This document shows, in pieces, positions 3,106 to 59,031 of a DNA stretch of 64,000 bases; position 1 is the first letter of the stretch; the number at the start of each line of letters is the position of its first letter. The translations under genes were made by a program, and so were the position numbers. The notes beneath the pieces were generated by a model. That model made no database searches and had not been told where the DNA came from. It saw only the letters and a program-made list of their open reading frames with translations. Source of the DNA: Enterobacter phage phiEap-3; sequence record KT321315.1. One strand, written 5' to 3'.

Positions 3106-3131
3106 AAAAAGCCCCCTGCATTGCAAGAGGC
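3106..3131 (-). terminator. rho-independent terminator after gene 52
   Basis: minus-strand reading AGCCTCTTGCAATGCAGGGGGCT plus T5; same element as 55331-55359. Confidence 0.6.
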
Positions 3132-3138
3132 TTTGTAA

Positions 3139-8856: not shown

Positions 8857-8887
8857 TGTTTCGTTTCGATGTAAGTACTATATCAAA
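8857..8887 (-). promoter_or_regulatory. conserved promoter-leader cassette (TTTGATATAGT-N5-CATCGAAACGAAACA)
   Basis: extended -10 (TG-N-TATAGT) then conserved leader; drives gene 8509-8838. Confidence 0.5.
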
Positions 8888-8897
8888 GGTAGTTATT

Positions 8898-9122
8898 CTA
8901 TGCAAGGCTTTTTTCGTTATCAAGCAAATATTTTAAGTGTTCTTTTAATGCAGGGAGTTCGTTCAAATGGCGTTGCTTAACTTTCTCGTACTCTTTGCGT
9001 TCCCAGTTTTCAAGATTGCTTGCCAACGCTTCATCACAATAAGCGATCCCGCGTTCTGCATCCTGAACTTTCTGTTTCCATTGTGCAACTGCTTGTTGAT
9101 AAAGAGAACCGTTAACCATCAT
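8898..9122 (-). CDS. hypothetical coiled-coil protein
   Basis: 74 aa ORF with its own promoter/leader cassette. Confidence 0.5.
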   Translation of the reverse strand: MMVNGSLYQQAVAQWKQKVQDAERGIAYCDEALASNLENWERKEYEKVKQRHLNELPALKEHLKYLLDNEKSLA

Positions 9123-9136
9123 AATAATTTCCTCCC

Positions 9137-9158
9137 TTGTTTCGATGGGGTAACTATA
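9137..9158 (-). promoter_or_regulatory. conserved promoter-leader cassette (TTTGGTATAGT-N5-CATCGAAAC)
   Basis: family member upstream of gene 8898-9122. Confidence 0.5.
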
Positions 9159-9195
9159 CCAAAGCTACCCCAGAATGTTTTAACAAAAAGTGCTA

Positions 9196-9459: not shown

Positions 9460-9477
9460 TTTCGTATTCCTTTCTCT

Positions 9478-9531
9478 GTTTCGTTTCGATGAATACAAGA
9501 TACCAAAAAGCCTCCCGCAATGCAAGAGGCT
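9478..9531 (-). promoter_or_regulatory. terminator hairpin (9509-9531) then promoter-leader cassette (TTTGGTATCTT...CATCGAAACGAAACA)
   Basis: AAGCCTCTTGCATTGCGGGAGGCTTTTT followed by the leader family member; upstream of gene 9196-9459. Confidence 0.5.
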
Positions 9532-9547
9532 TCTTTAACAAAAAGTG

Positions 9548-9850
9548 CTATTTTATTTCTTTGAGCAATTTACGGATCCCGCCGCCCTGTGTCTTATCAA
9601 AGATTTTCTTTGCGTCAATAACAGAAGTGACTATGTGGTAGTTGTTCCCTTTTCCGTAAAACTCAAATTCGACCTTGTAGTCACTACGAAATTTCACAAA
9701 AACAAATTCACCTGCAAAATGCTTACGGAACTGCTTTTCGTTAATGTCCAACCATTCCTGTGTATCATCTAACTGATACATGCGACAAAACAGGATCGAA
9801 CCCATTACAACAATCATGACAAGGATAGCTAACGCGAATTCTGACATCAT
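9548..9850 (-). CDS. membrane-anchored hypothetical protein
   Basis: 100 aa with N-terminal TM segment. Confidence 0.5.
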   Translation of the reverse strand: MMSEFALAILVMIVVMGSILFCRMYQLDDTQEWLDINEKQFRKHFAGEFVFVKFRSDYKVEFEFYGKGNNYHIVTSVIDAKKIFDKTQGGGIRKLLKEIK

Positions 9851-30684: not shown

Positions 30685-30764
30685 ACATACCTCAATTTTT
30701 CAAAGAACGGGGTTATTGTAGTAACTTACGAAATGAAGTCAATACAAAAGACCATAAAAATTTT

Positions 30765-30906
30765 GATCAATAATACTTGATCTGATCAAATTTATGATCT
30801 ATAATTTATTAATTAATAATTATTTTACTACAATGATCATTGTAGGTCAAGTACTAAAATCAATAAATTTTATATAATTTAGATCTGATCTATAGATCAT
30901 TAGATC
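30765..30906. promoter_or_regulatory. GATC cluster (9 sites in about 140 bp) in the AT-rich divergent intergenic region, with several TATAAT-like boxes
   Basis: GATC at about 30765, 30779, 30784, 30796, 30835, 30882, 30887, 30895 and 30903; repeated TGATCT/AGATCT/GATCTA units; sits between divergent rnh (-) and 55 (+). Confidence 0.6.
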
Positions 30907-30988
30907 TACTTTAACCTTAAATAATATAGAATGAAATTTGATTTTGTCTACAGTTATTATATAATATTCTTAACTTCAAAGAGGAAAT

Positions 30989-35349: not shown

Positions 35350-37059
35350 ATGATCACCGAATCCAAAATGACTTATCAGGAAGCACTGAAAGTTTTGGGC
35401 GCAACTGGTAGCGAAACCAGCGCTGAAATGTCCAGACTCTTCAAACGTGCATCCTTACGCAATCACCCCGACCGTGGTGGTAGCAATGAATTAATGCAGA
35501 AAATCAACCAGGCTTACGATGTCGTTACAAAAACTGGGCCTAGTGGCGCACGTTCTGAGACTGCTGGTGATGTTCGCGCACGTTATGCCCGTCAAAAGAA
35601 AGAATGGGAAGAAAAAGTTGATGCTTACTTTGTAGTGGCGAAAAACTATTTCAGCACCAAATTTAACGCACAGGAATTTGCGGAATACTTCACCAAATAC
35701 ACTGGATTGCCTACCACTTTCAAACAGGAAGTAACAAAAGGTAGTCACGGTGTTTATGCTTCGTTCCGTTTCACTTCTGGTGATGCTTACTTTGATTTCG
35801 GTTTCAACTGCACCCCTCCTAATGGACAAGGGTTAGCCGCACCGGATTCATCTGCACTGGGTAGCGTTTCTGTTAGTACCTTTGTACTGGTTGGAACTAA
35901 AAAACACAAAATGGCAAGCCGTGATTATCAATGGGGCAAAAACCCAGACAAGATCACTCCGGAAAGCCTGTTCCCGTCTAAAAAACTGGAAAGCATTTTC
36001 AGCCCTGTACAGAAAAATATCAAATACAAACGTGCTGACTACCTGGCGTCATTCCGTAAGCTGTTAGGCGCTGACGTTAGCGGAAACGATATCTTTGTTG
36101 AAGTTGGTACACTGAAAGTTCGTTTCTATCGTCACGTATTCATGCGCAAAGGTGCTTATGTGTTTAGCGCGGTGTATGATCCTGCTGTATCTAAGTATCG
36201 TCCGGCTGCACAACTTCGCGGAACCATGTTCGAAGACGAAGACGGTGCTTGCCTGGATATGATCGTTGATACGTTCAAAGAGTTGCAGAAACTGAAACCG
36301 AGTGTTCAAGGCGTTGTGAACGCTATCGATAAGATGAACGCAGAGTTTGCAGCGGGACATCGTTCAGCATCTTTTGTTAAACGTGTAGCTGCTCAGGAAG
36401 CCGCGCCGAAGCCAGAAGAGAAGCCAAAACGCACTGTTAATCGTATCGGTAAAGAGGAATACTTCGCAGCACTAAAAGATATTGGTGCTCGTGTAATGCC
36501 TACCAGCGGTTATGTTGAATTTGATAACGGCGCTGGTGTTACTATCAACTTCAAGCGTATTGTTGTAAACCGTAAAGCATACTACTCATTCAGTAGCTTT
36601 GATTTCATGTACTCTGGTCAGAAACACATTGAGTGGTTGAAAGGAATCGATATCGCAGAAGATACCAAAGGAGCAAGCATTAGCCTACTCACTGATACTC
36701 TGAAATCTTTACGTGGGATCTCTGACTGGAACACTGTTAAGAGCGCTTTAGATCAAATGAATTCTAACTTCAAAGCGGGTAAATTCTCCGCACCTCATGT
36801 GAAGAAGGAAGCAGAGCAAAAAGCACCGAAACAGAAAGACGAAATCGGCGCACAGCCTACCAAACCACAGGCGGCTAAGAAAGATACACCGGAAGTGGAA
36901 AAATCACAGGCTGTTCATGCAGCACGTGAGAAAGCGAATATGAACAACACTATTCGTAAAATGATGACTATGTTAGTCAAAGCACAGCGTAAAGACACTC
37001 CGGAAGATATCAAGAAGGAAGTTGATGCAGCAATTCAATTGTGGCGCTTGACTTACTAA
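35350..37059 (+). CDS. J-domain (DnaJ-like, HPD motif) protein with internally repeated C-terminal modules
   Basis: N-terminus YQEALKVLG...LRNHPDRGG...KINQAYDVV is a canonical J domain; modules repeat (e.g. LKPSVQGVVNAIDKMNAEFAAGHRSASFVKR versus LRGISDWNTVKSALDQMNSNFKAGKFSAPHVKK). Confidence 0.8.
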   Translation: MITESKMTYQEALKVLGATGSETSAEMSRLFKRASLRNHPDRGGSNELMQKINQAYDVVTKTGPSGARSETAGDVRARYARQKKEWEEKVDAYFVVAKNYFSTKFNAQEFAEYFTKYTGLPTTFKQEVTKGSHGVYASFRFTSGDAYFDFGFNCTPPNGQGLAAPDSSALGSVSVSTFVLVGTKKHKMASRDYQWGKNPDKITPESLFPSKKLESIFSPVQKNIKYKRADYLASFRKLLGADVSGNDIFVEVGTLKVRFYRHVFMRKGAYVFSAVYDPAVSKYRPAAQLRGTMFEDEDGACLDMIVDTFKELQKLKPSVQGVVNAIDKMNAEFAAGHRSASFVKRVAAQEAAPKPEEKPKRTVNRIGKEEYFAALKDIGARVMPTSGYVEFDNGAGVTINFKRIVVNRKAYYSFSSFDFMYSGQKHIEWLKGIDIAEDTKGASISLLTDTLKSLRGISDWNTVKSALDQMNSNFKAGKFSAPHVKKEAEQKAPKQKDEIGAQPTKPQAAKKDTPEVEKSQAVHAAREKANMNNTIRKMMTMLVKAQRKDTPEDIKKEVDAAIQLWRLTY

Positions 37060-45276: not shown

Positions 45277-45434
45277 CCAAAACGTTTTTTCGTGACATAA
45301 CAGAAGGAAAAGTTTATACTGCGAAAAAGGATAAAGAAGGTCTATGGATAGAAAACGATTGGAATCGTGATATGTGGCTCAATCTGACGAATGAGTATAA
45401 CAAAGAACTAATTGAATATGAGATAGTGAAATGA
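45261..45434 (+). CDS. small hypothetical ORF (unlisted, 57 aa)
   Basis: hand translation MQIKITKTFFRDITEGKVYTAKKDKEGLWIENDWNRDMWLNLTNEYNKELIEYEIVK; ATGA overlap with the pseT start. Confidence 0.4.
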   Translation: MQIKITKTFFRDITEGKVYTAKKDKEGLWIENDWNRDMWLNLTNEYNKELIEYEIVK

Positions 45435-46315
45435 ATCTGTTTATGACTATTGGCGTTCCAGGTAGTGGAAAAACTACCTGGGCGCATGAGAAAGCCCGTG
45501 AATTGGGTAATACTGTTACGATCTCTCGCGATGATCTGCGTAGCTCTTTGTATAATGCTGGTAAAGGTGCTGGCGGATACAAATACACCAAAGCTAAAGA
45601 AGAAATGATTGCGGAAATGCAGGATCACGTTGTTATCTCCACTCTGAAAGATGGTAAAAACGTGATCATACACAACACGCATCTGAAAGAAAGTGATAAA
45701 AATCACTGGCGTGAAATTGCATTGGAACACAAAGCAGATTTTCATATCGAATACTTTGATGTGTCCATTGTTGAACTGCTTCGCCGTAACCACAAACGCG
45801 GTCGTGATGCATTACCCGTTTCACGTCTTTGGGAAATGTTTAATCAGTATCGTAAGATCCGTGGGTTCGTACCAGCAATGGAAATTGTCAACCCCCACAA
45901 TCAGAAGTGTGTGATCTTTGATGTTGACGGTACGCTAACAAAAGTAGGGCAACGTAGCCCGTATGACTTTACCAAAGTGATCAATGATCCGCCAAACATC
46001 CCGATTCAGCAACTGTTTCACCTGTACAAAAATGCAGGGTATAAATGCGTCGTTGTATCTGGGCGTGAAGGTAATCCGCAATGCGCACATGATACATGGG
46101 TTAGCCTGTTAAGTTATGGTGTTGAACCGGATGAAATTTTTATGCGTCAAGAAGGCGATACCAGGACAGATTTTGAAGTAAAAGAAGAAATTTTGTTTGA
46201 CAAGATTTTAGATAAGTATTATCCTGTTATTGCAGTGGACGATAGAGACACTCCGGTCGGAATGTGGCGAGCAAACGGGATTCCGTGCTTACAAGTCGAT
46301 TATGGTGATTTCTGA
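45431..46315 (+). CDS. pseT: polynucleotide 5'-kinase / 3'-phosphatase
   Basis: 294 aa; GVPGSGKTTWA kinase P-loop; C-terminal HAD motif VIFDVDGTL; colinear with T4 Pnk. Confidence 0.9.
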   Translation: MNLFMTIGVPGSGKTTWAHEKARELGNTVTISRDDLRSSLYNAGKGAGGYKYTKAKEEMIAEMQDHVVISTLKDGKNVIIHNTHLKESDKNHWREIALEHKADFHIEYFDVSIVELLRRNHKRGRDALPVSRLWEMFNQYRKIRGFVPAMEIVNPHNQKCVIFDVDGTLTKVGQRSPYDFTKVINDPPNIPIQQLFHLYKNAGYKCVVVSGREGNPQCAHDTWVSLLSYGVEPDEIFMRQEGDTRTDFEVKEEILFDKILDKYYPVIAVDDRDTPVGMWRANGIPCLQVDYGDF

Positions 46316-46349
46316 TTGACATCTAATGTGGGTATGTTAAAGTACCCAC
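46316..46349 (+). promoter_or_regulatory. sigma70-like promoter (TTGACA) overlapping a 7-bp stem-loop (promoter-early-stem-loop type)
   Basis: TTGACA at 46316-46321; hairpin GTGGGTA/TACCCAC at 46328-46349; then Shine-Dalgarno AAGAGGA and ATG 46368. Confidence 0.5.
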
Positions 46350-50658: not shown

Positions 50659-50699
50659 TAATCCCGTAGACAAGAAAACACTTTTATGAGGATGACATT

Positions 50700-53157: not shown

Positions 53158-54667
53158 TGAACTTGCTTCTACTCTGAAAACTAAAGAGAAAGAAGCAATT
53201 TTAAAACGTAATGCAGATAATGAATTGTTGAAAGAAGTTTTCCGCATTACGTATACAAAACAGATTATGTTTTATGTGCGTCAATTCCCTCTGGTAGAAG
53301 GGAAACCAGGCACAACACCGCTTTCCGATGCAATCAAAGCATTGCTGGAAGATTTAGCAAGCCGGAAATATACAGGCAATGCAGCGCGTGATCGTTTACT
53401 GGATATTGTATCATCAGTGAACATTAACGATCGTGAAGTGCTACGCCGTATCATTAACCGCGATCTGGAATGTGGTGCTGGCACAACCTTACCAAACCGG
53501 GTATGGAAGAAACTTATACCTGAACAGCCTCAATGCCTCGCTACGCCGTTTAGCGAAAAGGCTTTACGTCGCATCATTTTCCCGGCTTACTCGCAGCTTA
53601 AAGCCGATGGTGCGCGTTGTATGGCTGATTTGTTGGAAGCATTAAACCGTAAGGTATCGAGGGCGGGTAACGAGTACGAAGGGTTAACCCAACTTGATAT
53701 CGATCTGAAAAAGATACGTGATTATCTGGGATATGATGTAGTTCTGGATGGAGAATTGATTTATGTTCCTTCCGGAACCGTACCAACATTACCTGAACCT
53801 GAAACAGACATGCCTTTTTCTTTATCTGCTTTCATGGACGATGATGATAACGACATTGCGCTATTTGCGGAAGAAGTTAGAAAAGTATCGACCCCAGAAG
53901 AAGAACAGGCCGAAGCAAAACGCGAAGAAGGGAACGGGATCGTAAACAAATCTCTGAAAGGGACGATCACCGAAGAAGAACAGCGAAACATTGTTTATGT
54001 TGTTTGGGATATTATTCCATATGAGGTGTATTACGGCGAAGCTGAAAGTGTTCAGACTTATGATGAACGGTTTAGCCTGTTGCGTGATATCCTCCTGGAT
54101 CTTTCTCTGCCTTCTGTTCGCTTGATTCAGTCTAAGCTAGTGAATAACATTGCAGAAGCGAAACAGGACTATAACAATTACCGCAATGACGGTAAAGAAG
54201 GTTCTATTCTCAAAAACAGAAACTTCAAATGGAAAGATTCGCGAGTAGCTGATCAGGTTAAGCTGAAAAACAAAACCCCGATTGAACTACGGATCATTGA
54301 TATCTACGCGCACACTAAAGAAGACCATAAGGTCGGCGGGTTTGTTGTGGAAGATTTATCCGGAATGGCTCGAACGAATACCGGATCTGGGTTAACTGAT
54401 ACAGATTATCGTTACGATGATGATGGTATTACCCGTGTATACATTCCATTAGATGAACGTGGTGAACTGGATCGCGAATACATCATGGCGCATAAAGATG
54501 AATACATTGGGGCCATTGTAGAAATGGAAGTTGACGGCCTCCAGAAGTCGAAAACGCGTAAGAAAGGGGAACCGGAATACAGTTTCTTCCTTCCTATTAT
54601 CAAGAAGATAAGACGCGATAAGACTGAACCAGACGATATTCATGTTGTCTTTGCAGATCTATTTTAA
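53138..54667 (+). CDS. 30: ATP-dependent DNA ligase
   Basis: 509 aa; N-terminus MILSILNELAS...EAILKRN..NELLK aligns with T4 gp30; adenylation motif KADGARC. Confidence 0.9.
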   Translation: MILSILNELASTLKTKEKEAILKRNADNELLKEVFRITYTKQIMFYVRQFPLVEGKPGTTPLSDAIKALLEDLASRKYTGNAARDRLLDIVSSVNINDREVLRRIINRDLECGAGTTLPNRVWKKLIPEQPQCLATPFSEKALRRIIFPAYSQLKADGARCMADLLEALNRKVSRAGNEYEGLTQLDIDLKKIRDYLGYDVVLDGELIYVPSGTVPTLPEPETDMPFSLSAFMDDDDNDIALFAEEVRKVSTPEEEQAEAKREEGNGIVNKSLKGTITEEEQRNIVYVVWDIIPYEVYYGEAESVQTYDERFSLLRDILLDLSLPSVRLIQSKLVNNIAEAKQDYNNYRNDGKEGSILKNRNFKWKDSRVADQVKLKNKTPIELRIIDIYAHTKEDHKVGGFVVEDLSGMARTNTGSGLTDTDYRYDDDGITRVYIPLDERGELDREYIMAHKDEYIGAIVEMEVDGLQKSKTRKKGEPEYSFFLPIIKKIRRDKTEPDDIHVVFADLF

Positions 54668-54672
54668 TAAAA

Positions 54673-54706
54673 AGCCCTTGACTCCGGTCGGGGGCTTTGT
54701 TATATT
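54673..54706 (+). promoter_or_regulatory. terminator hairpin overlapping a sigma70 promoter TTGACT-N17-TATATT
   Basis: hairpin AGCCC...GGGCT at 54673-54696; TTGACT 54678-54683; TATATT 54701-54706; then leader CATATCGAAACG. Confidence 0.55.
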
Positions 54707-54741
54707 GCATATCGAAACGTAAATCACTGAGAGAATATATT

Positions 54742-55311
54742 ATGACTAGTAGTTATCAGAAACACAAAACCCTTATGGCAAACCTGTCCGGTAAACATAT
54801 CGACGAAGTAAAATCCCTGCTGACAGTAACCGAAGGCTCCCGTTTTGACACAAATCACATTATCAAACCTTCTGTGAAGAAAGTACTGAAAGTGATTTAC
54901 CGACATCCGGTGTATCAGTGCGTTCATATCATGAACAGCAACGCATTTATTTTCGTATATAACGAATCCGATGATACGTGTGTTGGTATTTTCCGAAAAC
55001 CTAACTTTGAATGCATGAGCGAAGCGGCTGTTGCAACCCCTATCGTTGAAGAATATCCGGATTATGTTCAACGCAACATGCGTTATGTGCAATCCCGACT
55101 TGATTATGCACACGATTTCAATTCTGACGCGGTAGAAGCGCTGGCGGATATCCTTTGCAAAAACCAGAAAGATCGTCAAATGACAAAATATCTGACAGAT
55201 CCAACACCGTCAACAATCCGAATTTCTGTTGAAGTTCCGTTTGAAAATCATTTCATGGCGGTTGAAGCGCTTGCTAAACTTGGTTTAGAAGTGAAAACAG
55301 AAGCCGTTTAA
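54742..55311 (+). CDS. hypothetical protein
   Basis: start moved to MTSSYQ, downstream of the promoter and leader motif. Confidence 0.5.
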   Translation: MTSSYQKHKTLMANLSGKHIDEVKSLLTVTEGSRFDTNHIIKPSVKKVLKVIYRHPVYQCVHIMNSNAFIFVYNESDDTCVGIFRKPNFECMSEAAVATPIVEEYPDYVQRNMRYVQSRLDYAHDFNSDAVEALADILCKNQKDRQMTKYLTDPTPSTIRISVEVPFENHFMAVEALAKLGLEVKTEAV

Positions 55312-55330
55312 TAGCACTTTTTGTTAAAGA

Positions 55331-55359
55331 AGCCTCTTGCAATGCAGGGGGCTTTTTTG
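55331..55359 (+). terminator. rho-independent terminator
   Basis: AGCCTCTTGCAATGCAGGGGGCT plus T6; near-identical element on the minus strand at 3106-3131. Confidence 0.65.
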
Positions 55360-55385
55360 TATAGTGTGTTCATCGAAACGAAACA
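55360..55385 (+). promoter_or_regulatory. conserved promoter-leader cassette TATAGT-GTGTT-CATCGAAACGAAACA
   Basis: family member upstream of gene 55400-55603. Confidence 0.5.
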
Positions 55386-55399
55386 CGGAGATAAACAAA

Positions 55400-55603
55400 A
55401 TGGCTCACATGATGAAGAAAGCAGAATTCCTTAACCTGGTTAAAGATTGCGGATTCGCTCACTTGAAAACTTTTCGTGGTAGTGTTTACCTCTATGACCG
55501 TGAAATCCAGGTTGCAGAAGTCTATTGCGCTTCTAACATGCAAGAATCTGGCATTATCTCTGCAATGAACCAATCAATCAAATACCGTAAATGGATGGGC
55601 TGA
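55400..55603 (+). CDS. hypothetical protein
   Basis: start moved to MAHMMKK after GGAG Shine-Dalgarno. Confidence 0.45.
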   Translation: MAHMMKKAEFLNLVKDCGFAHLKTFRGSVYLYDREIQVAEVYCASNMQESGIISAMNQSIKYRKWMG

Positions 55604-55605
55604 TT

Positions 55606-55782
55606 ATGAAAGTTAACGTTTCTTATGAATCTCGCGTTAATGGCGCACAGTGGCGGAAGCTGGATAACGGGCAAGTAGAAAGGCGTTTACCTGGTTCCGA
55701 TGAATGGACACTTGCGGCAGTGTTGGAAACCGAAATCGATCTGGCAACAAAAGACGGCATTTTGTTTGAGGTGAAGAAATGA
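55606..55782 (+). CDS. hypothetical protein
   Basis: start moved to MKVNVSY. Confidence 0.4.
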   Translation: MKVNVSYESRVNGAQWRKLDNGQVERRLPGSDEWTLAAVLETEIDLATKDGILFEVKK

Positions 55783-55943
55783 TCACACTCAGTGATTATC
55801 TTCTGTTTACTGCTTTTTGGGTGGCGTCGATATTCATAACTGTTTTGATTTACAACAAACGTGATGATTTTGGGTTGTTATTATTCATTCACGGGCTTCC
55901 TCTTTCTATGTGGATCGTGATGACTGCTGAAATTCTCCATTAA
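55779..55943 (+). CDS. small membrane protein (unlisted, 54 aa)
   Basis: hand translation MITLSDYLLFTAFWVASIFITVLIYNKRDDFGLLLFIHGLPLSMWIVMTAEILH; ATGA overlap with the upstream stop. Confidence 0.4.
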   Translation: MITLSDYLLFTAFWVASIFITVLIYNKRDDFGLLLFIHGLPLSMWIVMTAEILH

Positions 55944-56006
55944 TAGCACTTTTTGCTAAAACTATCCTGTTCTTGTTTGGTATAGTGTGTTCATCGAAAC
56001 GAAACA
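55941..56006 (+). promoter_or_regulatory. 3'-boundary motif TAATAGCACTTTTTGCTAAAAC followed by promoter-leader cassette TTTGGTATAGT-GTGTT-CATCGAAACGAAACA
   Basis: family members; upstream of gene 56026-56289. Confidence 0.5.
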
Positions 56007-56025
56007 GACAAAAGGAACTACGAAA

Positions 56026-56289
56026 ATGGCTAGAACAATCAAAGATTTCCACGATGACCAGATTATCTCTAATGCAATGGGTGGACGCATGATCCTGTTG
56101 ATGGACAGTGACGGTGATATCGTACTGGTTGTTGAAAACGTAGTTCACTACAGTAACCGTAGTCTGGAAGGGATGTTTAACTGGTTGATGCGCCAGCATA
56201 GCGCGGAGAAAAGCAGTCTCCCAGCGGCATGTAAAGCCCACGCTAAAAACCTGGTAATTATCACTAAGTTAAGAATCAGATCTTACTAA
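56026..56289 (+). CDS. hypothetical protein
   Basis: start moved to MARTIKD after the promoter/leader cassette. Confidence 0.45.
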   Translation: MARTIKDFHDDQIISNAMGGRMILLMDSDGDIVLVVENVVHYSNRSLEGMFNWLMRQHSAEKSSLPAACKAHAKNLVIITKLRIRSY

Positions 56290-56295
56290 AAAGTT

Positions 56296-56313
56296 GCCCC
56301 TTCGGGGGCTTTT
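56296..56313 (+). terminator. rho-independent terminator
   Basis: GCCCCTTCGGGGGC followed by TTTT; same hairpin as 41640. Confidence 0.6.
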
Positions 56314-56336
56314 AACCCCAACAAAAGGAACATCAC

Positions 56337-56627
56337 ATGAACTTCATCGATATCAACAAAGATTTGGAAGGTAAAAACATCAAACTCGTTAACCGTGAAA
56401 TGTTAGAGAGTCTTGGTAACGGTGGCGAAAAATTCAGTGAAGAATTCTATAACAATTTATCGTTGATGACGGTCAAGCGCGTTGATGTTCAGGGTGGTTC
56501 TGGTTGGGTTTCTGCAATTCCGGTTTCCCTGGTAGATCAAGCAACATATGACCCAGTTGCTGATTCATGGGATCTAGAAATGCCGTTGGTATTCGAAGAA
56601 GTCATGAAGTGCTACGAAATCGCATAA
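56337..56627 (+). CDS. hypothetical protein
   Basis: 96 aa ORF. Confidence 0.45.
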   Translation: MNFIDINKDLEGKNIKLVNREMLESLGNGGEKFSEEFYNNLSLMTVKRVDVQGGSGWVSAIPVSLVDQATYDPVADSWDLEMPLVFEEVMKCYEIA

Positions 56628-56638
56628 GGAGATTTATC

Positions 56639-56893
56639 ATGAATTTCAATAAAAACAACAAAGCGATCAGCGAAACAATCACCAACAAGAAACACGCTAT
56701 CTTTATCACAAAATACTGTGAAGGTGTTACTCTGCTGTATCGTCGATATGCTGTTATTGAACTATCCCCATGTATCTATAAAACCTATAAAGAAAACAAT
56801 GGATACTGGGAACGTTGTGATGATCTGGTTAGTTTTCTTATGTGGAACGGTGAGTTTCAAGGATATGACGATATCACTCCGTTGATAAAATAG
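56639..56893 (+). CDS. hypothetical protein
   Basis: start moved to MNFNKNN after AGGAG Shine-Dalgarno. Confidence 0.45.
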   Translation: MNFNKNNKAISETITNKKHAIFITKYCEGVTLLYRRYAVIELSPCIYKTYKENNGYWERCDDLVSFLMWNGEFQGYDDITPLIK

Positions 56894-56946
56894 CACTTTT
56901 TGCTAAAACATTAACGATGTCATTTGGTATAGTATGTTCATCGAAA
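56888..56946 (+). promoter_or_regulatory. 3'-boundary motif AAATAGCACTTTTTGCTAAAAC followed by promoter-leader cassette TTTGGTATAGT-ATGTT-CATCGAAAC
   Basis: family members; upstream of gene 56962-57261. Confidence 0.5.
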
Positions 56947-56961
56947 CAAAGGAGACTAACC

Positions 56962-57261
56962 ATGAAAAACTTATTCACTGTGCCAGCATGGATTGACCAC
57001 AAAGGCGATTACGATTTTATCAACTTCTTTGAGGTTATGGCTTTACTGAATATTGAAAATCAGTGGGTTCGTATGACAGCCAATGATCAGCGTAAACTGT
57101 TCGGTGTTACCCTGTTTGGCAAAAAGCAATTCATGGTTAAATCTTCTGGTGAAGTAATGGTTTGTTGGTCTACTTGCTTCGGAACTGATTCTGAAATCGT
57201 TACTGTCAATCGTGATAATTTGAAAGAAGCAATCAACGACAAAAAGGCGCTTGTATTATGA
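56962..57261 (+). CDS. hypothetical protein
   Basis: start moved to MKNLFTV after AAGGAG Shine-Dalgarno and the promoter/leader cassette. Confidence 0.45.
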   Translation: MKNLFTVPAWIDHKGDYDFINFFEVMALLNIENQWVRMTANDQRKLFGVTLFGKKQFMVKSSGEVMVCWSTCFGTDSEIVTVNRDNLKEAINDKKALVL

Positions 57262-57551: not shown

Positions 57552-57925
57552 GCAAATTTAAACTGAGTGCAACCGTTCGCCTTATTCGTTGGAATGGTGA
57601 AGAGATCCGTTATGATGACCCTGAATTCGCCCATGAAATTCTTTCGCATCGTCTGGGATTGAAAAACGCGTCATTGGTTCAGACTGTTAAAACATCAGCA
57701 GATCCGGAAATTTGGCGTTGTGTTATCCTGGATCTCGATAGCAACATTGACTATGACGATCCTAAGAACTATCCGCTTCTGGAAGCACAAGTTGATAATG
57801 CTCCAGAAGACAGACAGTGTTTTTTGGTTGAGTTACCGCGTGAACATTACGAAAACATCATAAAGGCCCGTAGAAAGGTCAACAACAATGTTTTCGATCT
57901 CCACCTCGGATTATTTGAGGATTAA
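57548..57925 (+). CDS. hypothetical protein
   Basis: 125 aa ORF. Confidence 0.45.
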   Translation: MSKFKLSATVRLIRWNGEEIRYDDPEFAHEILSHRLGLKNASLVQTVKTSADPEIWRCVILDLDSNIDYDDPKNYPLLEAQVDNAPEDRQCFLVELPREHYENIIKARRKVNNNVFDLHLGLFED

Positions 57926-59031
57926 GTACTGCTAGTTGTGTTCGTAGTAGCGGCGCTTGTAGGTTCCCCCACCTGTATACATTCAAGTGTTTGCAGGTGG
58001 AAATCTTTTGATACGTCTCGAACACATTCAACGATCAGATATTTTCCTGCATACTCTTCCCCAAATACCTCAATGATTGTTCCTACCTTAACATCTAAAC
58101 GACCCTGCTTTATATCGAATCGGATCCGGCGTTCATAGCTGGATAGCAATTGCATTTTAGAAGCCTGGAACGGTTTACCTTCTGAATCTGGGTTCTGAAA
58201 GTTGGTATCATAGATTGCATTACGGTTTGTGAAGATCCATGTATTCTCTGTGTCTGTATCAGCCAGTATATCACCGTACATCTTTTTATCAGTCAATGAC
58301 AGACTAAAGAAACTGGCGTCTTTAAACAGCGTTGTGTTATCCTTATGGGTAATATACTGGGCTTCTGTGAATATGACAGTATCGCCAACAAACACGTTAT
58401 CAACGTTAAATTTGTATGCTGGGATCGGTGTCTGGGCCAGAATGTCAGTTGAACTTTTAAGGAAAATACCGGAACCGTCTTCCCACAGATAACAGAAGTC
58501 AGAAGAAACTACACTTTGCCCGTTGTCCCTGATATAATCAAATATATCCTGATATGTACCATTTAGACATCCAGGAGGGATACGTATGTTACCGCCGTCA
58601 ATTTCGGGGGTAAGCAGTTTCATTTTGCTATACAGTGCCGTCATACACTCTGTAATCGTCTGTACGGCGTTATTGCTAAATGAACGGGCAAACTTACGTC
58701 TGAACGTTTTGTGCAGCGGAGAGAGGTTCATACGCAGCACAGAACGGTTTTTATCGTCAGTATCTACGTTAGAGTAAAGCAATCCGTAATAATGTTGTTC
58801 CTGTGTACCGTTATACTGGAAAGATACCTGTATGATCGGCTGGATAAGTTGCTGATAGATTAACTGTGCGTCGTATATCTGCATCAGCGTTTCCGATGAG
58901 CCGTTAATCATCGTCTTTTCACTAAACGAGACAAGAGCGGGTAGCAATTCAGTATATGCGTTATCAATGTATTTTTCGTATGATGTATATAATTTAATCG
59001 ATGTGACTCGATTGACGATTTTTTCAGCCAT
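57922..59031 (-). CDS. 27: baseplate hub subunit
   Basis: 369 aa; N-terminus SIKLYTSYEKYIDNAYTEL...TLMQIYDA parallels T4 gp27 SVKLFDSYDAWSNNRFVEL...GMLQFYDS; Thr/Ser-rich C-terminal tail; minus strand, divergent from 28. Confidence 0.6.
   Translation of the reverse strand: MAEKIVNRVTSIKLYTSYEKYIDNAYTELLPALVSFSEKTMINGSSETLMQIYDAQLIYQQLIQPIIQVSFQYNGTQEQHYYGLLYSNVDTDDKNRSVLRMNLSPLHKTFRRKFARSFSNNAVQTITECMTALYSKMKLLTPEIDGGNIRIPPGCLNGTYQDIFDYIRDNGQSVVSSDFCYLWEDGSGIFLKSSTDILAQTPIPAYKFNVDNVFVGDTVIFTEAQYITHKDNTTLFKDASFFSLSLTDKKMYGDILADTDTENTWIFTNRNAIYDTNFQNPDSEGKPFQASKMQLLSSYERRIRFDIKQGRLDVKVGTIIEVFGEEYAGKYLIVECVRDVSKDFHLQTLECIQVGEPTSAATTNTTSST

Follow-up and report, generated by a model that had tools for sequence, protein, structure and literature searches.

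The ligase-gp27 interval and its repeats

This study concerns short repeats that bracket small open reading frames (ORFs) in Enterobacter phage phiEap-3 (sequence record KT321315.1), of which one stretch of 64,000 nucleotides, referred to as the window, was analysed. The cassette region is flanked by the DNA ligase gene gp30, which ends at 54667, and by the gene of the baseplate hub protein gp27 (57922-59031, minus strand), and this interval is a hyperplastic stretch in which sigma-70-like -10/-35 elements are found upstream of each cassette ORF. The window region is about 97-98% identical to Slopekvirus Klebsiella phages (KP15, Matisse and R4_1), and phages of the RB43 group (Pseudotevenvirus) come next in relatedness, with about 78% identity; judged from its sequence, the window is that of a Slopekvirus, a T4-like phage of Klebsiella. 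An initial annotation of this DNA had guessed at a kinship with RB43 and RB49, and the guess was a good one: the nearest relatives outside the genus belong to the RB43 group, and a near-identical element is present in RB43 itself. The same annotation had distinguished three repeat families, namely a promoter with a conserved leader, a motif directly behind stop codons, which is called motif (ii) here, and GC-rich hairpins, and all three are real and occur far above chance.

On the plus strand, the ligase stop codon adjoins a terminator-like stem-loop (54671..54698; 12-bp stem, -20.4 kcal/mol, z-score -5.2) of the promoter-early-stem-loop (PeSL) type. It contains the -35 hexamer TTGACT (54678-54683) and is followed by a -10 hexamer TATATT with a preceding TG (54701-54706; 10 of 12 sigma-70 consensus matches for the promoter) and by the leader start ATCGAAACG (54711-54719), which together make up the predicted promoter of cassette ORF E (54742-55311). 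Just behind the stop codon TAA of ORF E (55309-55311) lies the first copy of motif (ii) (55312..55328), and then come a terminator-type hairpin (55331..55353; -20 kcal/mol, z-score -5.8) with A-tract and T-tract flanks and a -35 hexamer TTGCAA in its loop (55337-55342), a -10 hexamer TATAGT (55360-55365), a discriminator GTGTTC and the leader CATCGAAACGAAACA (55371-55385), whose predicted +1 is A 55372; this promoter would serve cassette I-J-K (55400-55943). The next copy of motif (ii) (55944..55960) is preceded by the ORF K stop codon TAA (55941-55943) and followed by an extended -10 element TGGTATAGT (55978-55986) without a -35 hexamer (AAAACT, 2/6) and by the leader CATCGAAACGAAACA (55992-56006), a candidate promoter of cassette M (56026-56289), behind which the GC hairpin GCCCCTTCGGGGGC and TTTT (56296..56309; -10.8 kcal/mol) form a putative terminator. 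Motif (ii) appears once more at 56891..56907, where ORF N stops with the TAG at 56891-56893, and the extended -10 element TGGTATAGT (56925-56933) and leader CATCGAAAC (56939-56947) behind it would drive ORF O (56962-57261).

Four further elements lie on the minus strand. A full composite unit (9477..9550) consists of motif (ii) (9550-9534), a hairpin (9531-9509) with the -35 hexamer TTGCAT, a -10 hexamer TATCTT (9502-9497) and a leader (9491-9477), and a hairpin-less unit (9139..9195) of motif (ii) (9195-9179), TGGTATAGT (with TATAGT at 9158-9153) and the leader ATCGAAAC (9146-9139). An ordinary promoter without motif (ii) occupies 8857..8905 (-35 TTGCAT 8905-8900, -10 TATAGT 8882-8877, leader CATCGAAACGAAACA 8871-8857), and a second copy of the hairpin of 55331-55353 at 3110..3132 is followed by a -10 hexamer TATATT, with neither motif (ii) nor a ATCGAAAC leader.

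In the window, the promoter-leader repeat TTTGGTATAGT-N5-CATCGAAAC occurs in six copies with at most three mismatches, against 0.02 expected, and on both strands as had been claimed; the copy at 54708 is an exception, since its core promoter (TTGACT-N17-TATATT) is a different one and ATCGAAACG is the only common part. The 15-nt leader CATCGAAACGAAACA is present in four exact copies (8857 and 9477, minus; 55371 and 55992, plus), where 0.25 are expected with up to two mismatches, and copies of the shorter ATCGAAAC stand 3' of a -10 hexamer at eight sites: 54711, 55372, 55993 and 56940 on the plus strand, 9490, 9146 and 8870 on the minus strand, and, doubtfully, 28611 on the minus strand. Motif (ii), TAGCACTTTTTGYTAAA, has five exact copies (9179 and 9534, minus; 55312, 55944 and 56891, plus; 0.07 expected with up to two mismatches), all of which abut or overlap the stop codon of the upstream ORF, and the positions first given for it needed shifting by three bases at most. 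GC-rich hairpins with TTCG, CGAA or GAAA tetraloops number 13, compared with 0.26 in shuffled sequences, in accord with the more than 12 reported before. The 23-mer AGCCTCTTGCAATGCAGGGGGCT is indeed identical at 55331-55353 (plus) and on the minus strand, where it lies at 3110-3132 rather than at 3106, and a copy with three mismatches is found at 9509-9531 (minus). The hairpins at 54671, 55331 and 9509 fold with -19 to -20 kcal/mol (z-score about -5), have A- and T-tract flanks and hold a -35 hexamer in the stem or loop, and both sites said to combine a promoter with a stem-loop (54671-54706 and 46316-46349) exist.

Motif (ii) as a candidate marbox

The order within a unit is always upstream stop codon with motif (ii), a spacer, the -10 hexamer (usually with TG before it), six variable bases and ATCGAAAC(GAAACA), behind which purine-rich sequence leads to a Shine-Dalgarno sequence and the ATG. 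The spacer between motif (ii) and the -10 hexamer has either 20 variable bases or 30-31 bases with the hairpin and the -35 hexamer. A terminator hairpin is absent at 55944, 56891 and 9195; hairpins of this type are found at 54671, 55331, 9509 and 3110 (-19 to -20 kcal/mol, z-score about -5). From the start of motif (ii) to the -10 hexamer it is 37 nt at 55944, 56891 and 9195, and again 37 nt in the related phages P61 (25285) and BHU20 (34273 and 117432) despite different 20-nt spacers; where a hairpin bearing a -35 hexamer intervenes, it is 47-48 nt. Five different 20-nt spacers show no change of length at all, and such constancy over diverged sequences suggests a constraint of DNA geometry that is tied to the downstream promoter and not to the upstream gene. 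The initial annotation had taken motif (ii) for a signal of the 3' boundary of the upstream ORF. This is disfavoured by the fixed distance to the downstream -10 hexamer over five spacers, by an insignificant RNA hairpin (-1.3 kcal/mol, z-score -0.5), and by a perfect match to another kind of site in a fitting register.

That site is the marbox, an asymmetric sequence to which the activators MarA, SoxS, Rob and RamA bind as monomers (PMC8811837, PMC10268841, PMC12052159). The core of motif (ii), GCACTTTTTG(C/T)TAAA, gives a 15/15 match to GCAHWWWWTGYYAAA, the consensus of the marbox, in all five copies of the window (core 55314-55328 is GCACTTTTTGTTAAA, core 55946-55960 is GCACTTTTTGCTAAA, and the third plus-strand core lies at 56893-56907), it fits gcannwwntgnnaaa at every specified position, and its sole variable base falls on the Y position; by simple arithmetic a random 15-mer would match the consensus with a probability of about 2e-7. 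Published marbox sites of class II are in the forward orientation, cluster at -41 and go without a -35 hexamer (criterion, at most 3/6), and the RamA site of Klebsiella pneumoniae micF, of the sequence CACT-7X-AAA, lies at about -41. The copies at 55946, 56893 and 9193 (minus) have this geometry: they are in the forward orientation, overlap the -35 position and are centred near -41 (-40/-41 at 55946) relative to the predicted +1, with 2-3/6 matches at the -35 position itself (AAAACT or AAAACA) and the -10 element TGGTATAGT. The measured distance from the start of GCA to the start of the -10 hexamer is 35 bp in the class II phage copies and in E. coli K-12 micF alike. In the two hairpin copies, 55312 and 9550, the box lies 11 bp further upstream in the forward orientation, with its centre at about -51/-52, and a forward marbox moved to -52 is active at ycgZ in vitro. 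The zwf promoter was considered as a model for these hairpin copies and set aside, since its box is much closer to the -35 hexamer and is not comparable.

Thus, the phage units resemble class II host promoters such as micF in a forward marbox over the -35 position, a box-to-(-10) spacing identical with that of micF, the lack of a recognisable -35 hexamer and a canonical -10 hexamer, and they differ from them in lying in lytic phage genomes, in being present in multiple near-perfect copies, whereas host sites are degenerate, and in usually having an extended -10 element. From sequence and position, it is likely that motif (ii) is a functional marbox. A class II marbox reading of this motif, common to T4-like and T1-like phages (see below), appears to be new: in sequence and keyword searches of the literature no link between phage promoters or these repeats and marboxes was found, and two large phage-host screens make no mention of rob, marA or soxS.

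Which protein would bind the motif? Searches of a full Slopekvirus genome with tblastn gave no homologue of MarA, MotA or AsiA; with T4 MotA and AsiA as queries no match reached E<=1 in P61 or the window, and the only one in BHU20 was a non-significant AsiA match of 16 amino acids (E 0.94). As no gene for a MarA-like protein, MotA or AsiA was found, it is simplest to assume a host factor. All element-bearing phages of INPHARED infect Enterobacterales.

In the bluF-ycgZ intergenic region of Citrobacter youngae, the 17-mer of the phages is found, identical, where E. coli has the verified ycgZ marbox GCACTAATTGCAAAA. A scan of 596 Gb of genome contigs for the 17-mer returned at least 120 matches, which is about the chance level, and the scan is therefore uninformative overall; among the matches listed, 11 are in Enterobacterales, one of them at ycgZ, and naive ORF calls around the remaining ones gave nothing interpretable. 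It may be added that, again among the matches listed, the exact 17-mer stands in intergenic-looking DNA of 11 Enterobacterales species, including Enterobacter asburiae, Kluyvera and Leclercia, and going by the sequence these sites could be marboxes of the host or of prophages; one of them precedes a small ORF that we take to resemble an AlpA-type prophage regulator. In the window itself, a marbox with one mismatch (GCATCTTTTGTTAAA) is seen at 36367-36381 (plus), in a stretch conserved with P61 and BHU20. Its context, CAGCATCTTTTGTTAAACG, resembles coding sequence. The match is probably coincidental.

Other identities of motif (ii) were tried and rejected. As a sigma-70 -35 element, TTGCTA would be 22 bp from the -10 hexamer and out of range. 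A sigma-54 element, TGGCAC-N5-TTGC, would be 2 bp out of register, and the -10 hexamer downstream is of the sigma-70 type. The Lrp consensus, YAGHAWATTWTDCTR, is matched at 13 of 15 positions, more poorly than the marbox and without positional logic, and the consensus sequences of SlyA, OxyR, CRP, Fis and IHF do not fit. Middle promoters of T4, which depend on MotA and AsiA, also have an activator box in place of the -35 hexamer and a sigma-70 -10 hexamer. However, the T4 MotA box, (a/t)(a/t)(a/t)TGCTTtA, lies 11-13 bp upstream of the -10 hexamer and the phage box 20 bp, neither MotA nor AsiA was found by tblastn, and a MotA box was rejected as well; RB43 has been reported to lack MotA and middle promoters. 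In the records of KP15 (NC_014036) and KP27 (NC_020080) these sites already carry, unaccompanied by any analysis, the annotation 'putative middle promoter; discovered using MEME'.

The same units in T1-like siphoviruses

A BLAST search with one unit unexpectedly matched T1-like siphoviruses (Drexlerviridae), in which the architecture is TAGCACTTTTTGTTAAA, 20 nt, TAnnnT, 6 nt and ATCGAAACGA. A scan of IMG/VR gave 120 loci, mainly on contigs of 42-53 kb with up to six copies each, and among 156 distinct contexts the best -10 hexamer has offset 37 in 65 cases and offset 36 in another 12. Of 95 T1-like promoters, 83 have G at -14 and 85 have A at the predicted +1. When T1-like promoters are anchored on the -10 hexamer and leader alone, 59 of 68 have a marbox (at most one mismatch) at the same offset, and the variation in the motif is mostly at offsets 6-8 and 12, which are degenerate positions of the marbox. 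A complete marbox-N20-TATAGT-ATCGAAACGA unit was also met on a 46.7-kb contig, NODE_2, of Nitratidesulfovibrio liaohensis XJ01, which is probably a T1-like enterobacterial phage and not Desulfovibrio DNA.

The genome paper of TLS, a T1-like phage, describes 21-nt intergenic direct repeats, aaATAGCACnnnTTGnTAAAA, whose function was listed as open in 2024 (PMC11447400). They have the same sequence as motif (ii) and the same orientation relative to transcription (PMC11447400), and the distance to the start codon is about 76 nt in TLS and 71-88 nt in the window (71, 73 and 82 nt for the class II copies, 88 nt for the hairpin copy at 55312). All five window copies fit the TLS core ATAGCACnnnTTGnTAAA, and their last base is A where the copy is of class II (three) and G where a hairpin follows (two); among the TLS-type subtypes, T is found in the window, and A and G in related T4-like genomes. 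Not like the TLS repeats, which have been described only in Drexlerviridae with 18-21 per genome, the present ones are in a T4-like myovirus with 4-5 per genome.

The TLS paper suggests, among other things, an AT-rich enhancer like an UP element (PMC11447400), which in the present case would mean that the C-terminal domain of the RNA polymerase alpha subunit contacts motif (ii) directly, without an activator. Motif (ii) does have a T5 tract followed by an A3-4 tract, the hairpin copies span, by our alignment, about -60 to -44, the zone of UP elements, A-rich upstream regions have been reported for T4-type early promoters, and the motif corresponds to the AT-rich region of PeSLs. But the positions of the motif that never vary (G, C, A, C and T, G) are contacts specific to a marbox and foreign to UP elements, the class II copies span -49 to -33 and so overlap the -35 position, and the A and G subtypes drop the T tract and retain GCAC...TG..AAA, so that we think such an enhancer unlikely.

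A role like that of a stoperator was also raised by the TLS authors (PMC11447400), and more generally motif (ii) might be the operator of a phage-encoded protein, a repressor or a new activator, that mimics or happens to coincide with a marbox. The near-palindrome TAGCA-N5-TGCTA within the motif, and the conservation beyond the marbox core, would be in its favour. The variable position 12 (C/T), however, breaks the palindrome and suits the Y of an asymmetric marbox, the orientation relative to transcription is constant, which a true palindrome does not need, and the identical sequence is found at a host target of MarA. Moreover, the motif is common to two unrelated families, and among the proteins found to be shared between them (a 92-residue ORF of a few T1-like contigs, a protein of about 160-205 residues with 28-31% identity, apparent tail-fibre segments and some further hits) none stood out as a candidate regulator. 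An operator of this kind is quite unlikely in our judgement, and a marbox for a host activator is preferred to it.

Could the repeats simply be ordinary promoters, kept identical by recent duplication or gene conversion, with motif (ii) as a passenger? Recombination between copies clearly occurs, and P61 and BHU20, with genomes of about 78% identity, hardly differ in their orthologous intergenic regions. Yet conservation is specific to positions, the variable spacers are of fixed length, hundreds of distinct copies exist in two families, and variation falls mainly on degenerate marbox positions, and the passenger explanation is thus highly improbable.

One small gene is shared together with the motif. 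The 92-residue ORF of P61 (25005-25283), which is also present in BHU20, has homologues with 70-73% identity in three T1-like contigs. Directly behind its stop codon both families have a marbox, which is of the A subtype except that, of the three T1-like contigs, one has the G subtype and another has no marbox there. Upstream of this ORF, a marbox promoter is found in the T1-like contigs and BHU20, and an ordinary promoter in P61. In RB43, a marbox-hairpin-promoter unit is 98% identical over 55 nt and has a different leader. The RB43 unit with its other leader and the sharing of the 92-residue ORF indicate that the modules are separable and mobile.

The conserved leader at the predicted transcript start

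ATCGAAAC begins 7 nt after the -10 hexamer, and its A is therefore the predicted +1. The leader follows marbox promoters, PeSL promoters and an ordinary promoter alike, its RNA is unstructured on folding, and its consensus ATCGAAACGAA holds in the 95 promoters of T1-like phages. The annotated transcripts of the T7 promoters A1 and A3 start at C|ATCGAGAGG and C|ATGAAACGACAG; as in the phage units, C precedes the +1 A and the initial sequence is ATCGA... or ATGAAACGA..., while the T7 promoters differ from the class II phage units in having consensus -35 hexamers and no marbox. Early promoters of T5 are reportedly also among the strong coliphage promoters with conserved transcribed regions. We favour, with moderate confidence, the explanation that the leader is an initial transcribed sequence and 5' leader of the kind preferred in strong coliphage promoters, which would act in start selection, in promoter escape and in keeping the ribosome-binding region open.

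The initial annotation had instead seen in the leader, AUCGAAACGAAACA, a post-transcriptional control site, at which a factor of the phage or host, like RegA or RegB, would bind or cleave. That ATCGAAAC is invariant in eight window promoters while the discriminator and the downstream sequence vary, and that three different upstream promoter architectures precede it, are in line with this idea. Against it, the same consensus follows the same promoters in unrelated T1-like siphoviruses, in which we know of no RegA or RegB of the T4 type (they were not searched for). Furthermore, the leader occupies positions +1 to +11, a zone that influences where transcription starts and how the polymerase escapes from the promoter, near-identical starts are seen in T7 A1 and A3, no RNA structure is seen, and other promoter families of the same genome have other leaders such as CGTAGACAA. 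A control site of this kind seems unlikely. As for those other families, promoters of the TTGAC(T/C) type followed by CGTAGACAA(G/C)RWAMY, with the tails GAAAAC, GATACT and CGAAAC, are found in the window at 50665 (plus) and 17760 (minus) and in P61 at 29498, 67495 and 101444, and conserved transcript starts are thus not unique to the ATCGAAAC family.

Cassette exchange at the repeats

The ligase-gp27 interval varies from 1464 to 3264 bp among ten phages. If the ORFs are designated by letters, the window has the order E, I-J-K, M, A, N, O-B-C; R4_1 has E, I-J-K, A, N, O-B-C; KP5 has E, I-J-K, M, A, B-C; phi_KPN_S3 has E, I-J-K, A, B-C; PSKm2DI has E, A, B-C; KP15, P61 and Tauntaun have E, A', F-G-B-C; and KP27 and BHU20 have A', F-G-B-C. 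Where I-J-K is lost, the promoter at 55360 runs into the leader at 55992, with the joint inside TATAGTGTGTTCATCGAAACGAAACA, the junction of the M indel is ACAAAAGGAAC in the region of the leader and Shine-Dalgarno sequence, Tauntaun has a hybrid of the hairpin and the promoter at 55978, two PeSLs bound E, and the left junction of the replacement of A by A' lies in the promoter, leader or Shine-Dalgarno repeat. BLAST homology to relatives stops exactly at 55385 and 55992; for KP15, 2DI and Tauntaun it stops exactly at 55385. No function could be assigned to the ten cassette ORFs from PHROGs or Pfam.

PeSLs are known from the phage pairs RB49/phi1, T4/PST and KVP40/nt-1 (Arbiol 2010, PMC2839356; Comeau 2014, PMC4122927). 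Like them, the present elements have an early promoter of the sigma-70 type with an AT-rich segment upstream and, in the units with a hairpin, a GC-rich stem-loop of the terminator type. They are located between small ORFs of hyperplastic regions, and closely related phages differ by indels whose ends fall in them. Unlike in PeSLs, the upstream segment is a defined putative marbox of 15-20 bp and not generic AT-rich DNA, three units have neither a stem-loop nor a -35 hexamer, the unit includes a conserved, predicted initial transcribed sequence, and siphoviruses of an unrelated family carry such units too. A shuffling of small ORFs by PeSLs had been proposed in the initial annotation, and the comparison of relatives bears it out: ORFs are present or absent as cassettes, and most junctions are inside the promoter or leader repeats, which supports the idea. 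A PeSL-type cassette role of the repeats is very probable. Thus, the earlier interpretation stands for the cassettes and PeSLs, falls for the boundary motif, and probably falls for the leader.

As a separate observation, the lytic Slopekvirus genome P61_1 carries a coding sequence annotated as 'IS1595 family transposase ISCco3' (45330-46253), and some IMG/VR contigs encode proteins 31% identical to it.

Other promoter-associated elements

Inverted repeats bracket some of the -10 hexamers. In the hairpin-less unit on the minus strand, the arms GGGGTA and TACCCC (9171-9147) enclose the extended -10 element (GGGGTA...TATAGT TACCCC), and as read-through RNA the copy at 9140-9176 folds with -15.9 kcal/mol (z-score -4). 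In the promoter TTGACA-N16-TAAAGT (46316..46349, plus), a GTGGGTA/TACCCAC repeat (46328-46349) surrounds the -10 hexamer (GTGGGTA...TAAAGT ACCCAC). Among the 95 T1-like marbox promoters, 32 have an inverted repeat of at least 5 bp around the -10 hexamer, and permutation gives a mean of 6.7 and a maximum of 16.

At 30750-30910 of the window there is an AT-rich, GATC-dense block of about 160 bp with the back-to-back, near-consensus promoters TTGATC-N17-TATAAT and TTGACC-N17-TAAAAT, which could be an element related to Dam and SeqA or one like an origin. Similar blocks of P61 are at 15.4, 88.4 and 158.4 kb; that at 15.4 kb is about 74% identical to the window copy, and that at 158.4 kb was grouped by its promoter-scan pattern and has no BLAST match to the window.

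A proposed composite early promoter and its possible meaning

How may these parts work together? We propose that the repeats are modular early-promoter cassettes of four separable parts, in which motif (ii) would be a marbox for a host activator, and on the sequence evidence we give this reading a probability of roughly 0.65. The first part would be the consensus marbox, bound by the host AraC-family proteins MarA, SoxS and Rob, and in Klebsiella by RamA. The second and optional part would be a GC-rich intrinsic terminator hairpin with the -35 hexamer in its loop, that is, the PeSL architecture, the third the -10 hexamer, usually extended (TGn), and the fourth the initial transcribed sequence ATCGAAACGAA, which continues as a purine-rich leader without structure up to a Shine-Dalgarno sequence. 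The copies at 55944, 56891 and 9195 are most likely, from their geometry, class II activator-dependent sigma-70 promoters, at which the activator would replace recognition of a -35 hexamer as at micF, and in those at 55312 and 9550 the putative marbox would act from one helical turn further upstream, before a hairpin with a -35 hexamer. As the units are near-identical, homologous recombination between them may delete, insert and swap the small ORFs they flank, and they may double as points of exchange with T1-like siphoviruses. The sequences, the spacing, the polymorphism of cassettes and the sharing between families are observed; the start sites, the binding of Rob, MarA, SoxS or RamA and the activation are what the sequences would predict.

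Several points weigh against this proposal. The placement at -41 depends on the predicted +1, and the extended -10 element alone could drive the promoters without an activator. MarA and SoxS are scarce in unstressed cells and Rob is largely sequestered. Conservation exceeds the 15-bp core (A at -2 and -1, TA at 0 and 1, A at 17 and C at 18), and position 19 of the older 20-bp consensus, a Y, is A in the phage motif. The near-identity of the 17-mer in two families could come from recent horizontal spread and not from selection for activator binding. The tblastn search in which no MarA homologue was found was made with an approximate MarA query. As to exchange, the junctions of the N-O replacement are a stop/Shine-Dalgarno site and the inside of ORF B, not a promoter repeat. 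The classical genetics of T1 resistance is not known to have yielded rob, marA or soxS.

What would such promoters mean for the phages? We lean, if only slightly, towards the view that two unrelated families of lytic phages of Enterobacterales, the T4-like Slopekvirus/Pseudotevenvirus and the T1-like Drexlerviridae, wire many of their transcription units to host MarA, SoxS, Rob and RamA and swap marbox-promoter-ORF cassettes with each other. If this is true, phage gene expression would report the resistance or stress state of the host, for example multidrug-resistant Klebsiella that overproduces RamA or MarA, or cells in which Rob is activated by bile; alternatively, replicating phage DNA might titrate MarA, SoxS, Rob and RamA. 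The unexplained 21-nt repeats of T1-like phages would gain a function, and it would be explained why few sigma-70 promoters can be found there. The PeSL model would gain a module with an activator site, together with exchange between unrelated families that share a host. Even without activation, the cassette map is a record of Slopekvirus recombination at repeats of promoters and leaders. And if the motif is a working marbox, promoters of an entire class of therapeutic Klebsiella and E. coli phages would depend on or respond to the regulators of efflux-mediated multidrug resistance, which would bear on combinations of phages with antibiotics and on differences in host range between strains.

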